Positions 23,985 through 54,659 of a DNA stretch of 64,000 nt are shown here, in pieces. The position numbers and the translations under genes are program-made. The notes below the pieces were generated by a model. That model saw nothing but the letters and a program-made list of their open reading frames with translations. It made no database searches and was not told where the DNA came from. The DNA is from Lingula anatina (lineage: Eukaryota; Animalia; Brachiopoda), in assembly GCA_051362555.1 (NCBI GenBank), contig CM120640.1:7998001-8062000 (forward strand), in the 5' to 3' direction. Position 1 is the stretch's first letter. Every line of letters begins with the position of its first letter.

Positions 23985-26745
23985 ATGGAAAACATGCGGG
24001 GGAATGGTACATTTCAACTGAATGGCTCGGCACTGTTGCCTTATGAACATCCGTTCTGGTCTACTTATCCTCCGCCACCTCGTGAAGTCAATGTCATAGT
24101 GGGGACATTTGTGTTAGCAGTATCTCTCATCACCATAGCTGGCAATTCGTTCGTAATTGGTTTCTTCTGTAGGTGAGTACTACACATTTTAATGGTAAAA
24201 CTGACACTTATTTTTGTTTACATAGCAGTCCCTCACTAAGTCGGTGGACCCAAATCTATTGGTTCTAGATTTCTGTTTTTACCGCTACCTATCAATTCAC
24301 CTTTTTCTTTCTGCATTATAACTCAAGAATTTAAATATCAGATCTCGAAAACGAAGGTAACAGAAGGGAATTTTTCAGCGGTTTTGGATGTGACAGCCAG
24401 ACCTTGGTGATTAGGGGAACAAGTGTTAGAATTTCCAGGAAAATTAACTTTCTACTATCTTAGGGTCTCACACTCACTGTGCCTTAAACGGAGTGCACAG
24501 TGTTGTCCATTTTGTATTTGGAGTTGAAACACAGTTGGCACAGGGGGGTTACACTGTATGTAACATCGGAAACCCCGGTTTGTGAATCAGTAGTTTAGAT
24601 CCCAGCAGTTCCAAAACCACTAACGATAGCTTGTAAAAATGTAATCGACAATGAAAAAGTAAGTCCAAATTATCCAGTATCGCGTCTGTTCTTTTATTTA
24701 TCTTCCGTATAATGTAAACATTCTATCAAACTGCTCGAACAGATCACCTAGTATCCCCAGATAGGCCTACCTGTTAAGAGATTTTACTCCACACACATTT
24801 GTAAGGTCAAGTTTGCGTTTTAGCGTAATTTGTTCAAAAAGAAAGGGATCAGACAAACTTCCCGAAATATTTCAATACTTAAATGACACGCCAGGAATTT
24901 AATCGATAAGATGCCAAGATGCCGCATGTAAATGTACTGAATATGATTTTGCGGGTTATCAAGGAAATGCGCCTAAGCACATTTATTTCAAAGTGTAATA
25001 CCAATCCATTTTCTTGTTTTAAGTGGGAATATATCGAATAATGATGAACCTTTCAAAGGACCCGTCACTGTTTTGTTAAAAAGCCCGGACAATGTTGTTA
25101 TCTGAAACAATGATGCCTTGATTTCGAGCATTATGATTGCATTTGGGAATTGATTTTTTATCTTCATAGTTCCACTTAATCGTTATTTATTTAAATGTGT
25201 ATGCTGTGAGAGTAAGAGTAGCACTTTTGAAATGATATACTAACTTTTGGTATAACTGTTATTTGAACAATTTATGCAGCAATCGCCTTGATCGGCTATA
25301 AGATTTGAAAAAAATCCTGGCTATTCCGATGGTAGCTATAGAAAGAGAACATGTGCATTTTTTAATTTTATACGGCGAAATGCTGTTATCTTACAACTTG
25401 CTTTAGTAACAACAAAAAATCCTATATCTAAAATGTTCTCTTTTTTTTTTTGCTATTTTAGGTGTAAATCCCTTAGGACTCCAGCTAACTTTCTTCTTAT
25501 GAATCTGTCTTTAAGTAACGTTTTGATGTCTGTGTCTGTTCCAATGGTTACAGTAGCTTCTTATCTTGGCGAATGGCCATTTGGAGAAATAGGTGAGTTT
25601 TTTCTATCTCGAATGCAACTTTCCCTCCCAGGATATATTTTGTCAAAGACAGAGGGTACAGCATGAGAATGTAAAATGAGATTCCAATGTCTCAAATAAT
25701 AGTTTTGTAAGTGTATTTTGGATTCATTACGTAATTCTTCTGTTACAAACTTGCATTTAGCTAATTTTTTTACGAAAAGTACATTTCTACTGTCATTTTT
25801 ATAATTTTTTGGCTTGGTTATCCAAATAATACACTGTACAGCGACACTAAAACCTCGCAAAGTTTATATATCACATTGCTTTGCTTAACCTAAGGACGCC
25901 ATATAGGTACACATCATCAATACTATTGTCCTCAGTTACTTAAATCACTGGTCTTTTCAGGTTGTAACCTACACGCTGTGATGATGGGAGGGTTCGGACT
26001 GATGACTATTAATACAATGGCAGCAATCGCGGTGGAGAAACACCACAGTATAGTGAAGTCCCAGACTGTCGTCAGTCGCGTGTCATGGCGTTTGGCACTT
26101 AAGTATCTCGCAATAGTTTGGGTAAACTCAATCATCTGGGTCCTACCACCTTTATTCGGCTGGGGTCGATATATTTTAGAAGGACTGGGAACAGCTTGTT
26201 GCTTTGACTACATAACGGAGACAATTACAAACAGAGCCTTTGTTGTTACGTTATTTGCAGCGGGATTTATCTGTCCTCTCTCTGTTATCGTGGTTTGTTA
26301 TATCTGGATCTTTGCTCACGTTCACAACAATTCTCATGCCATGAAAACGTATAGGATGTCTTCTCAACGGAAGAAACGAATTTCAAGATCTGAGCTGAAA
26401 ATAGTGAAAATGATTTTAGTGGTGTTGATGATATATATCGGAGCTTGGACGCCTTACGCGGTTGTTTCTCTTATGGGAATATTTGGAAAAGCTAATCAGC
26501 TGGATCGCGTAACCTCCACTATTCCTGCCATGGTGGCCAAGGCATCTGCAATTTACAACCCCTTGGTTTATATTCACTACCACCGGAGATTTCGTGGAGA
26601 GCTGAGGAGAAGAGGAATATTCCCTTGTAGTTCAGCGTCACATAGTTCGGCGCAAAATTCGTCCTATGGCTCTAAAAGTGACTCAAAAAGCTGGATTAGA
26701 CAGTCTGCTTTGGCAAAACAAACTTCCGCTCATCACTATGTTTAG
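23985..26745 (+). CDS. Rhabdomeric-type (r-opsin/melanopsin-like, probably non-canonical) opsin; 3 coding exons, ~367 aa (377 aa if ATG 23955 is used)
   Basis: Exons 23985-24172, 25462-25592 and 25961-26745 join in frame through GT-AG introns (phases 2 and 1) at melanopsin-equivalent positions (FCR|xSLRTPAN, G|C110). Motifs: HPFW, GN in TM1, LRTPAN, GWGRYILEG..CCFDY, WTPYA, AKASAIYNPLVY with K296 at 26539-26541, HRRFR. N-glycosylation sites NGT and NGS. AATAAA at 26832. Confidence 0.95.
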
Positions 26746-27033: not shown

Positions 27034-28317
27034 GGGGAGACCGGGGCTAGTTGGCCCAGTTAGACACTTTTGGCCTTGTAGAGCCAACTAGGAGTGGGTT
27101 AGAGTAACAAAACCGGTTTCAAAGTAAGCCCCATGAACTAAGCTACGTATGCAACGTCATTATTTTTCAAATATAATGCCAGGTGGCTCACAATTTGACA
27201 AAAAACGCAGTTGACGTCAGGGGGGCCAACTTGCCCCGCCATGGGGCAAGTTGGCCCCAGGGTCGGGGCAAGTTGGCCCCCCTATACGAAAATGAAGTAT
27301 ATATCCCATGTAAACGCCTTGAAATACATTTTTATGAATTTCTAATGTATTTAATTGATTTTTGAGAGTCTTTGATGAATAAACAGTTCAAATGAGGCAG
27401 ATTTATTGAGGTTTCCGTATGTCACGTTGTTGGGGGGGTATGTGTTGCAAGAACCAAAATATCTATCAATAAAATGTGTTTTGTTTGAATTAAGAATAAA
27501 TAAATAACGGTATAAAGAAGATTTTTAATGAATGAAAACAAATAATAAATTTTCTTTTTAAAAGAAAGTAACAAATTCAGTTTTAAACCATTGAGTTTGT
27601 TACAACAATGGTCTCTAGCTAGGGAGGGGTTGAAAATCCCCTTGGGGCCACATATAACACTATAAATACAAAGGGAATCCCCTTACAATGAATTAAGGCA
27701 AAATAAATGTTTTTCTACGGAAAGTCCAATGGATTTGCTTTTTAATACTTACAATCAACAGAATATTTCTAATATAAATTTTCAAAAAGACACCAGAGAG
27801 AAAATTCTAAAAAATCAATCAGACGGTAATAGACACCGGCAAGCTTTGTCAATTTCACCAACTTGTTTATTTCAAACAGCGTTGCGCGCAAAGGTTTGTG
27901 GGTAATATGAGGGTCCAACTTGCCCCGAGTCAAGGGGGCCAACTAGCCCCGGTCGCACATTATTTATTTTAAAGGATGGTAGCCATTTATGGTGCTAGAA
28001 TGAGAAACGATGATACATCTCTGTGAAACTTAAAACGATTAGCTTCAGTTTGATGCCCTATACATATCTTATATTCGATCAAAAGCCTATGACAATAGAT
28101 TTTGAAATCTCTTAAACAAAATTACTTTTAGGTGCAAAAATCGTTTATTTCGACTCACCGCTTTAGTAAAACTTTTTAACGTCTTACACTTCCTTAGCAT
28201 TGTAGGCTACGGTCACTTTGCAAGAGTATGTGGCCAATTTTTTTACCTCGTAGTTACTTTTTCATAAATTGACGGGGGGCCAACTTACCCCGGGGTCCAA
28301 CTAGCCCCGGTCTCCCC
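27034..28317. mobile_element. Tc1/mariner (pogo-like) non-autonomous element, 1284 bp
   Basis: TIR GGGGAGACCGGGGCTAGTTGG / CCAACTAGCCCCGGTCTCCCC flanked by TA on both sides; internal GGGGCCAACTTGCCCC repeats at ~27220-27280 and ~27910-27950. Confidence 0.88.
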
Positions 28318-30926: not shown

Positions 30927-33900
30927 TCACGATATTGATTGATCTGCAAGATTTACATCAAAATACAACTGGTTTTCAATGGTCTTTGGTGCGTGTCCAT
31001 TCTCTTGGTCATAATCTTTGCCAATTTGCAGATTTAAGTGAGGTTCATTTAATCCACCATACACCCTTCCATTATTTTCGTAGTCGTCACCCTCTCTGCT
31101 GTAATGCACAATTGGTTCTTCTTTGCTGTAAAACACAAGTCTACTTCTAATAACGATGATCACGATTACTAGAACGAGTATCACAAATAGCAAAGTGCCC
31201 ATTACGATTCCAACTATGGCAGGAACAGGAACGTCTAGGGCCTGACCCACATTTTCTTCAGTCCTACGAGCACCTGGTTTGATGACTATGTGAACGGGTG
31301 CCTTTGTGGAGCGATGTGTTTTGTCTGAATTGAAAAAAAGGTCATATTTCAATGAAAATTATTCGATTTCCAAAATGAGTAAGATACACAGAAATATATA
31401 AATATACATGTATCATCGATATCGGTTTGTTATTTGTACACAGACCTGGGCTACGTATCTCGAAATGTTCGCTATGTTGCGCACGTGTGCAAGTGTCTCG
31501 ATTCCATAACCGATTCTTTCGAGATACGGGGCATGGAATCGAGACGCTTGCGCACGTGCGCAACATAGCGAACCTTTCGAGATACGGAGCCCTGATGCGC
31601 TGATGAAATGTGTTGCGGTCAAGGTGATCCAAATGAGGGGGCTGTAAATCAACAAAAAATGTTCTACTGTATATCACTAAAAGACACAATTCTGTTTTAT
31701 ATGCATATATGATATCCCTCCATTTGTTTGTTCTTCTCTTATTTGCTATACTTAAATTTGATTTAATTGCGATATTTTGGCACATTGGACAAACCTGCGC
31801 TGCTTGTTAATGTGGGCGAAGCCACTTGTGTTGAATTGGTTTTTACCAGAGTCTCCTTAGGTGTGGTAGTTGGAACATCTACTGTAGGTGTCACTTTCCC
31901 TGTAACATATAAAAAATTCTTCCTTTTTTAGAAGAAATAAGACTACCTTACATACACAATCCAAACCAACACAAAGCTGATCGACAATGTCACGCAAAGA
32001 ATGCATGTCTATTGCATAAAGCTGACAAAAGAAGTAATCTTATACATGTTTTGATGAATTTTTGCGATGGAATACTTACCAATACATACTGGAGAACTAC
32101 ACCGACATCCCAAAAAGACAATGTCGTCAATTGAAACAGCCTTTCCGTGTAAAAATACGTCTGGTAATGTCGTTTCTATTGTTACCTAGAGATAACATAA
32201 CGTGCAAATAATAGCTTGAACAAAAAGGCTTATCATAAGTGTTCTGTATAAAACAAGATAGGATCTTAAAACAATCAAACAGTGAAACAGTGATGACAGA
32301 TTGTACACAACGTTAACTTGAAACCATCACTGTAAATGGTTTCTTTAGAGTGTTGGACACCCATGTTAATCACCTAGCTTTAAGGCATCTTTATATATGT
32401 CTATTTGATGAAGGGCAATCACTGCGATGATTCCAAGTTGCAAGCGTTGTATTTCAGAAATTGTAATTTTACAAATACGATATTGTGGGACAAATAAAAT
32501 CTTGTCAACGGTATTAATGTTTTCAGTGTTATTATATAATTGATTTCAAACTGTTCAGTTTGATTCGACAGTAGGTATGATGTTCAATCAAGTGAATGAA
32601 TGAAATGCATATTGCGGTTGGAATTTAGGAACCGCATTAGCTAGAATTAGTGACCTGGGTGAGTTTAATTATAGTAATGTTCGTCTCACACATTTAAATC
32701 TATTAATATAAATACAATGTCACATATAACGTATAGTGTTACCGTTTGAGAAAAAGTGCCCATGTGATGACAAGAGGTTCGATAAACTTAACATCGTATA
32801 CCGACGTCTCGAGTACGCAAGCAAGCGTTGGTGGGGAGAAATAAAATGTTTTGAGCACGTCCATAAACAATTCCATGCTATGCTAATATCTTCGTTTCAA
32901 CACGCTGGAAACAGTGTGAATTCATGCACTCTATGTTGTGCGTATTATCGATGACACATACGATACTCATACGTACTTCTTTACGCTAGGTGTGACAGTC
33001 TTAAAGCAAGTCTTGCATAACTTGCAAGGTTTAATTGCTCACTAACTGCACACTGCTCTATATTCTTATCTAATTGACAACTCAATCAAACTTAATCAAA
33101 ATGTTTTGATATTTATGAGATAATTACTTACACAATTCTAACTTAAATGATAAAAAATACTGCATCAATACCTCAGTGGGAAAAAAAACGTACCGTAAAA
33201 TCTCCTAAACTGGAATATTGACTAATGTCGATCGCATTAGAACTTTTCCACGTATCGAAACGAGTCGAGGTAGAAGACCAAACTTGGTACACCTGTCCTA
33301 CCGGAATTGTTGTTAATGATACTGACAGTTGAACTCCGTCGGCGTTATTGAAGTAATAGTAGAATTTCATATAACATGGGCCAGTGGTTCCTGATATAGC
33401 CGGTGACTGAATGGTTGTCCTTTCACTGTTTGGCATGCCGTTTGCCCAGTAAGCATACATAAACTGGCCCTTTGATCCTGCAAAGTGTTCAATATAAAAT
33501 AATGCACAAAAGGTCATCTAAATTGGTTAAGAAAAGGCTTCATTATACTGAAAATTGATCAAATTCGTGTTTTCATTCGACGACCTTTAATGAAATAGAA
33601 AAAGATAAATACAATGTAAAGTGCATTTTAAGATCTGTTCAGCAACTGTCTCTCTCTCTATGTGTGTCACGAGTTAAAGGATATCTTTCCTACAATTCGA
33701 CATGCAGACATTTTTTAAATGTTAAATGTAAGGCCAAAATGCCTGTAGGAAAATATGGAACGGCGCCCTTAGGCATTTCTCGATGTTATACTAATTGAAC
33801 CTATATGGTGGCATTTGGTTGAGTTTTGTGAGGAAATTCTGACTTCAAGTGCATCTGTAATGACTGAATTCCTGCAATGAATGAACACTTTTAACATAGA

Positions 33901-53275: not shown

Positions 53276-53664
53276 AACTTAAAGACAAAGGAAACAAATA
53301 AGACCACACAAAGGCAGCTGAATGTACATATAACACAATTCAGTAATACATTTTTTTCGGACCAGGTAATTCAAGTAAGTAAACGGAATAAGAGATGTGA
53401 ATAAAAATATACACTTGTACAGAGAACATATACACCCGGCATAGACCCTACGAATAGCCTGGGTGGATATGCCACGAGCCATATTAATATTAAAAGTGTA
53501 AAAACATCTCCCAGTCCGCCGCCAGAGAAAATCCATGCAGGCAACAGCCTACGCTTAGCCGTGCACGTAAAACACAGGGATATCTGGTAAAACCGACAAG
53601 GCAAACACACAAACAGCTGGGTGACTCCCCAGGATAGGAGCATAACAAATCCTCAAAATATAAA

Positions 53665-53964
53665 CCTAGTATACCAGATAGCATCACAGGGTTCTCATTA
53701 CTAGGCAAACAGGTAAACACCTGGGAAGTACACCCAGAACCTAGTGTACCAGATACCACCACAGGGTTCTCACTACTAGGCAAACAGGTAAACACCTGGG
53801 AAGTACACCCAGAACCTAGTGTACCAGATACCACCACAGGGTTCTCACTACTAGGCAAACAGGTAAACACCTGGGAAGTACACCCAGAACCTAGTGTACC
53901 AGATACCACCACAGGGTTCTCACTACTATGCAAGCAGGTAAACACCTGGGAAGTACACCCAGAA
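53665..53964. repeat. 75-bp tandem repeat, 4 copies
   Basis: Unit CCTAGTGTACCAGATACCACCACAGGGTTCTCACTACTAGGCAAACAGGTAAACACCTGGGAAGTACACCCAGAA at 53665, 53740, 53815 and 53890. Confidence 0.95.
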
Positions 53965-54659
53965 CAAAGAGCATAACAACTCAAAAATACATATAACCTA
54001 GTCGACCAGAAACCCATTATAATACTTCACCTGGTAATGCAGACATCGAGACAATCGGGAGATGGGAGATGGAAATAAATAGATTACGGCATGTCAATGA
54101 CAGCTCGGAAAATCGGAAATATGAAAACTGCGAAACACCTGGCCCGGTAGGAATATCAATATTAATATAATAGCTGTACACAAAAGAAGAAAAAAATCAA
54201 GAATACCACGATGAAGTGACACCTTAACAAAATAGTTAACAACTGCAGTTGCAACACACAATAAATTATAAATTTGTTGATAAGAACACATGTATAAGGG
54301 AAAAAATGAAGACAATATAGAAATACTAGCCTGTGTGTGATCCAAGAACTTGAAGTCACCCAATAAAAGGAAACGAAACTTGAATAACAAAACTGGTGAT
54401 GAAAACTGAATATATCAGAAGAAAATAAAGTCACCAAGTAACAAGAAAAATGGCCGTCCCCAAATCTTGAAGCCACAAAAGTTTGATGGCTGGTAACCAA
54501 TGTACAAATAAAAATAAAGAAACGTAAGTAATAATACAGGGTAGCTGCTAAAACTGCGGGTAAATATCTCCGCAGCTAAAAGGCTGAATGACTTCTCACT
54601 AATGAAGCTCGATAGAAATAGTTCCCAAAAATATCTTTCATAAATTGTGCTAAAAAAAC

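Follow-up and report, generated by a model that had tools for sequence, protein, structure and literature searches.

An r-type opsin of Lingula anatina with cysteine at site 188 is a candidate self-regenerating pigment

The window that we analysed, a 64-kb stretch of Lingula anatina DNA, holds an opsin gene (Table 1) whose product carries cysteine at site 188. Our analysis leans towards this opsin, probably a noncanonical member of the r-type, forming a pigment that returns thermally to its dark state after one photon. Such self-regeneration is a well-founded and cheaply testable prediction, not a demonstrated function. The gene is known already, and the Cys188 residue and its implication appear to be unremarked in the searchable literature; a search whose scope lay outside the alignment figures and supplements of the Cys188 papers and outside most subscription journals found no report of Cys188 in an r-opsin, in a brachiopod or in a gastropod. 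According to the available text of a 2025 review, no natural photocyclic opsin other than Opn5L1 is known, and Cys188 is seldom met in other opsins (PMC12579811); a 2026 coral preprint already reports independent natural Cys188 photocycling (bioRxiv 10.64898/2026.05.24.727572). The diversity of natural photocyclic opsins and their shared mechanism are called poorly understood in the available parts of both sources.

Gene structure and expression

Splicing of the three exons across GT-AG introns gave an exact match to a 367-aa L. anatina protein, XP_013409489 (P0002 in our set), whose database name is rhodopsin, GQ-coupled-like. Two in-frame GT-AG splice solutions were found; the one listed in Table 1 reproduced P0002 exactly. 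The gene is structurally intact, with an open frame and canonical splice sites, and a tblastn search of the window revealed a single opsin. The product matched PF00001 (E 6e-49). Its AlphaFold2 model had a mean pLDDT of 87.9 and seven long helices, and the top fold matches of the model were rhodopsins, the best being squid rhodopsin (TM-score 0.80).

Table 1. Positions of the opsin gene and of its key residues in the window (bovine numbering)
Feature	Position	Strand	Remark
Exon 1	23985..24172	+	start codon, N-terminus, TM1; spliced CDS = P0002
Intron 1	after exon 1		phase 2, within codon 63
Exon 2	25462..25592	+	ICL1, TM2, ECL1
Intron 2	after exon 2		phase 1, within codon 107
Exon 3	25961..26745	+	TM3 to C-terminus and stop
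C110	25963..25965	+	TM3 partner of conserved disulfide
H113	25972..25974	+	Tyr in 160/178 compared opsins, His in 7/178
E134-K135-H136	26035..26043	+	replaces D/E-R-Y motif
ECL2 stretch E181-G-L-G-T-A186-C187-C188-F-D190-Y191	26179-26211	+	exon 3
E181	26179..26181	+	expected counterion of bistable-type pigment (putative role)
A186	26194..26196	+	common to P0003 and chicken Opn5L1
C187 (TGT)	26197-26199	+	ECL2 disulfide cysteine
C188 (TGC)	26200-26202	+	predicted ECL2 strand 186-188 of model
K296	26539..26541	+	retinal Schiff-base lysine
H-R-R, sites 310-312	26581..26589	+	coordinates counted from exon-3 frame

Evidence of expression was trace only. Six opsin reads in total came from two of four RNA runs, 6-25% of each run being read (X15, four reads; X18, two reads, partly fitting; X12 and X16, none), and no read over codon 188 or over a splice joint occurred in these samples. 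A run search returned exon 3, in part or in full, in 10 DNA rows, and no RNA row was listed; five of the DNA rows carried a flag as a possible source, and none of the 10 is counted as support here. No brachiopod orthologue outside L. anatina was found in the homologue searches, nor among the best 150 of 338 matches at E<=1e-30.

Register of site 188

The original prediction had read the second cysteine of ECL2 as site 188. Codons (GAA GGA CTG GGA ACA GCT TGT TGC TTT GAC TAC) and ungapped register both agree with that reading. Bovine numbering was taken from rhodopsin chain 1f88_A, ungapped from W161 to Y191, with anchors matched by eye. The Lingula opsin spaces W, PP, GW, RY, E, C, D and Y as the bovine protein does, at an offset of +1, and the second Cys is therefore site 188. 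Squid rhodopsin (2z73) and jumping spider rhodopsin-1 (6i9k), the best matches in sequence and fold, aligned to the Lingula opsin without a gap in ECL2 and share its register there. Both belong to the canonical bistable r-opsins and carry Ser188, DRY and HPK, where the Lingula opsin has C188, EKH and HRR.

In the model, C188 sits in the ECL2 strand at a pLDDT of about 98; in squid rhodopsin, site 188 is described as lying within 5 A of the polyene (PMC8766551). The protein contains eight cysteines (protein positions 62, 64, 108, 186, 187, 211, 219 and 329), and none of them is an extracellular partner for C188. Since C187 is disulfide-paired by register and no extracellular Cys is to spare, C188 is likely a free thiol. 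We infer the C110-C187 bond and the counterion role of E181.

A second locus on another contig encodes P0003 (XP_013405920), which is 57% identical to P0002 and reads E-G-L-G-T-A-C-C-F-D in ECL2. This diverged paralogue has the same A186-C187-C188 and so defeats the objection, raised with the original prediction, that C188 might be a sequencing error or a private allele. The register, moreover, is anchored by E181, C187, D190 and Y191. Both Lingula proteins may stem from one assembly; even so, the chance that Cys188 reflects sequencing error, a private allele or mis-numbering is negligible. The P0003 gene model lacks TM1 and eight ECL1 residues relative to P0002, probably through an annotation error.

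Classification and Lingula paralogues

Phylogenetic analysis was performed with IQ-TREE (LG+C20) on 72 rows and 349 columns, the rows being hand-picked from 217 fetched proteins and the reference rows mostly recognised through named neighbours. The Lingula opsins fell inside a 55-row r-opsin clade (100/99) together with melanopsins and with arthropod and mollusc r-opsins. The c-like and Opn5-like groups stood apart, the Opn5-like rows forming their own clade (100/99). The predicted r-type assignment is accordingly right in the broad sense, as judged from the tree. A 27-row group (89/86, not starred) held Lingula, Platynereis r-opsin4 and mollusc noncanonical genes; within it, the Lingula clade grouped with two Owenia proteins and one further protein (96/92).

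XP_013409489 is already present in the noncanonical r-opsin tree of Ramirez et al. 2016 (PMC5521729). Judged by label order only, the supplement places it beside XP_013405920, XP_013407359, XP_013411648 and XP_013412872, and on one side of these labels stands echinoderm opsin4, on the other mollusc 'non-canonical r-opsin'. Our group at 89/86 is consistent with these labels, suggesting that the Lingula protein is a noncanonical r-opsin. For noncanonical r-opsins, monophyly is reported as weak in the same paper, and the parts of it available to us do not discuss site 188 or the photochemistry of XP_013409489. The function of noncanonical r-opsins is called unknown in the available text of PMC10733189.

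Five Lingula opsins (P0002, P0003, P0034, P0035 and P0066) formed one clade (100/99). The two Cys188 genes, P0002 and P0003, are sisters (100/99) separated by 0.82 changes per site, and T188 is kept in the other three paralogues (S186-C187-T188). Cys188 thus marks one branch of a Lingula-specific five-gene expansion whose remaining members have Thr. The T188 paralogues XP_013407359 and XP_013411648, being encoded in the same genome, are built-in controls. Three of the five genes have His113, and P0066 has QMY at the DRY motif.

A lineage-specific expansion, several unusual residues and very few RNA reads would also fit a duplicate in decay, unable by now to form a pigment, its odd residues reflecting relaxed selection. 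We consider such decay very improbable. The frame is open and the splice sites are canonical; the end branch (0.40) is shorter than the tree median (0.57); and the odd residues, which pseudogenes would not keep in frame, are common to two well-separated genes.

Rarity and independent origins of Cys188

The 217 fetched proteins gave 190 clusters at 90% identity, and site 188 was callable by pairwise alignment in 187 of them, a sample that is the top of several searches and not a census. Ser occurred at this site in 102 proteins, Thr in 66, Gly in 10, Cys in seven, Asp in one and Ala in one. The predicted unusualness of Cys188 was thereby upheld. The seven Cys188 proteins were the two from Lingula, Lottia XP_009062294, Nucella KAL8591907, Batillaria P0201, P0160 (a non-r protein) and P0216 (a bird opsin-5-like protein); a partial Patella vulgata model, P0200, was an eighth case. 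Cys188 is evidently rare but not unique to Lingula among r-opsins. Ala186 was found in 12 of the 187 proteins, mostly G188 arthropod and c-type proteins, Ser or Thr being present at this site in most opsins. A metagenome scan yielded 17 loci, five with readable ECL2, and Cys188 in none of these five.

These frequencies bear on a more ordinary reading, in which the Lingula protein is a bistable noncanonical r-opsin and Cys188 a tolerated stand-in for Ser whose effect, exerted jointly with A186 and H113, would at most be to tune the spectrum or the preference for an isomer. S, T and G all occur at site 188 already, a Ser-to-Cys replacement takes one base change, and E181, D190, W265 and Y268 of the Lingula opsin are as in bistable r-opsins. 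In addition, 57% of columns are common to both Lingula sisters anyway. Cys remains scarce, however, although it is one step from the most frequent residue (7/187 against 102/187 for Ser), and no tested Cys188 pigment stayed plainly bistable, as far as the available text of the sources goes. We regard ordinary bistability as rather unlikely, with a chance that is still appreciable.

The three full gastropod Cys188 proteins formed a clade (100/99) that sat within bivalve T188 genes (100/96), and the distribution of Cys188 on the tree required four changes. A tree constrained to unite the Lingula pair with the gastropod trio was worse by 65 log-likelihood units (AU p=0.0003, for a group defined by the Cys188 trait after the tree had been seen). 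A single r-type origin was thus ruled out, indicating that Cys188 arose at least twice within r-opsins. The proposal of an independent origin in the r-opsin clade therefore stands in so far as the Lingula and Opn5L1 residues lie in separate clades; the Lingula origin is not, however, the sole one among r-type opsins.

The gastropod set (Lottia P0061, Nucella P0101, Batillaria P0201 and Patella P0200) reads C187-C188-F-D-Y. Compared with Lingula, these opsins lie on a separate branch and have S186, D/N181, C211, F268, G292 and intact DRY and HP(K/Q). Invariant columns numbered 169 of 298 in the Lingula pair, 88 of 252 in three gastropods and 49 of 173 in four, so that the gastropods' retention of Cys188 says more than that of the Lingula pair. 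By itself, the sharing of Cys188 by two paralogues is weak evidence of selection, because so many columns of the pair are identical and the Ser-to-Cys step is so short. No functional study of gastropod Cys188 r-opsins was found in the literature. The Lottia Cys188 opsin lacks an acid at site 181. P0160 reads S186-C187-C188-I-N-W and lies outside the r, c-like and Opn5-like groups, a further independent Cys188; it may be xenopsin-like.

Predicted photochemistry

Four Cys188 pigments were found to have been tested and, according to the parts of the sources available to us, all four self-regenerate in a Cys-dependent manner, which makes a dark reset likely in the Lingula opsin also. In chicken Opn5L1, described as Gi-coupled, 11-cis retinal is bound by Cys188 as an adduct, and the 270-nm product does not arise in the C188T mutant (PMC5871776). 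Bovine G188C recovers thermally from meta II, as no other G188 mutant does, and the substitution destabilises bovine rhodopsin (PMC8871353). T188C makes the bistable Xenopus Opn5m photocyclic and all-trans-binding (PMC8766551). A natural case is the coral opsin AtAntho2c, an 11-cis photocyclic pigment; neither its C188S nor its C188A mutant recovers (bioRxiv 10.64898/2026.05.24.727572). The four span three unrelated opsin groups, and the effect of Cys188 is thus not bound to one scaffold; the positive cases were picked or engineered by groups seeking the effect, so negatives may be unreported. A further point against the prediction is that the pocket of the Lingula opsin differs in other respects too (H113, M117 and A186).

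The biochemistry of Opn5L1 and G188C on which the original prediction had drawn is borne out by these papers. Its appeal to Cys188 adduct chemistry is upheld by Opn5L1; in bovine G188C, Opn5m T188C and AtAntho2c, no 270-nm adduct was seen. A covalent adduct is demonstrated for Opn5L1 only in the texts available, and we therefore treat the adduct as one of two options for the mechanism.

The Lingula opsin shares with Opn5L1 a natural Cys188, E181 and D190, and the chicken G184-T-A-C-C188 is identical to that of Lingula (PMC5871776); it differs in belonging to another opsin group and in having W167 where Opn5L1 has F/Y. With AtAntho2c it has in common a natural, independently evolved Cys188 and D190. 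AtAntho2c, however, is an anthozoan ASO-II opsin with an 11-cis dark state, Gi/o coupling and Asp292, in contrast to E181 and A292 in Lingula. The adduct, all-trans binding and Gi coupling of Opn5L1 and the thermal self-regeneration of AtAntho2c are reported as measured. Bovine G188C and Opn5m T188C show that Cys188 alone can confer a photocycle, and the latter mimics the Thr-to-Cys change inferred for Lingula. Both are artificial, their thermal isomerisations run in opposite directions, and neither is an r-opsin.

In the mechanism that we propose, retinal would bind K296 with E181 as counterion, and the disulfide of C187 to C110 would leave the C188 thiol free beside C11=C12. After photoisomerisation, the thiol would lower the barrier to rotation, acting either through a transient adduct or through hydrogen bonding and electrostatics, and the chromophore would relax to its starting state with no need of a second photon or of enzymatic recycling. 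For the direction of the cycle, we slightly favour that of Opn5L1, in which the dark state is all-trans, light gives 11-cis and the return is thermal, on the basis of the T188C result in bistable Opn5m and the identity with chicken Opn5L1 from G184 to C188. Two points speak against this direction: Ala186 is absent from the gastropod Cys188 proteins, and the cycles of the coral and bovine pigments run the opposite way. The likely role of such a pigment would be non-visual light sensing in tissue that has no retinal-recycling partner.

More tentatively, and with somewhat less confidence than in the thermal reset itself, we suggest that Cys188 self-regeneration evolved at least twice inside r-opsins, in the Lingula pair and, separately, in an old lineage of gastropods that takes in limpets and caenogastropods, with the Lingula pair converging on Opn5L1 at A186-C188 as a reverse, light-inactivated receptor. 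If true, photocycling would be a solution reached repeatedly in the opsin tree, beyond vertebrates and coral, and the first natural light switch that is photocyclic and possibly Gq-coupled would come from the r-opsins.

Signalling motifs

The description of the protein as a rhabdomeric pigment holds as regards its place in the r-opsin clade; the protein is noncanonical, however, in having K135 and no HPK. Arg was present at site 135 in 179 of 184 compared opsins and Lys in both Cys188 Lingula sisters; the K135 count in the comparison was four, one of these being the misaligned row P0216. At sites 310-312, most r-opsins have H-P-K/R and the Lingula opsin has H-R-R, the Pro being missing in all five members of the Lingula expansion. 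One source regards HPK as a hallmark of opsins that couple to Gq (PMC10733189). The Lingula opsin thus lacks two hallmarks of canonical Gq visual opsins, HPK after NPxxY and D/E-R-Y. Its G-protein output is doubtful given K135 and HRR, which may make signalling weak or non-Gq. A literature search on the effect of R135K in opsins found nothing relevant.

One explanation of these motifs is that the protein binds retinal, and possibly cycles it, but signals weakly through G proteins; it would then store retinal, isomerise it, or work as a receptor that is biased towards arrestin or independent of light. Lys135 in both sisters and the loss of HPK across the Lingula clade point in this direction. 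The Arg-to-Lys change is conservative, however, and the protein retains E134, NPxxY and a basic ICL3; moreover, the Opn5L1-like P0216 has VCC at the DRY motif, and chicken Opn5L1 is nonetheless described as Gi-coupled in the available text. A weak signaller therefore has, in our estimate, a small chance of being the right explanation; it overlaps on photochemistry with the self-regenerating pigment that we favour.

Value of the locus

The locus is a natural test of Cys188 within the clade that defines bistability. Its added value lies in the comparative set, with the T188 paralogues as controls and the second, gastropod origin as a replicate. A positive result would extend the 'Cys188 rule' to r-opsins, would give noncanonical r-opsins a first function, and might lead to an optogenetic switch that controls Gq signalling and resets itself. 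The optogenetic case for the Lingula protein is limited by its possibly weak or non-Gq signalling, and the gastropod proteins, in which DRY and HP(K/Q) are intact, may suit a Gq switch better. Should the result be negative, the Lingula opsin would be the first exception from nature and would direct attention to the extra residues required by the chemistry.

Neighbouring DNA

Just downstream of the opsin, a pair of 19-base inverted repeats (27039-27057 and 27936-27954) flanks about 900 bases. A G-rich motif of this repeat recurs internally, and by eye the element looks like a non-autonomous DNA transposon. On the minus strand, the window contains repeated MAM-domain exons from about 30900 to 63700 (PF00629 in two scanned ORFs) and a transmembrane exon at 30927-31358, which suggests that a large gene for a multi-MAM membrane protein runs convergently towards the opsin. 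At 53490-54026, a tandem repeat of about 78 bases gives a repetitive open frame.
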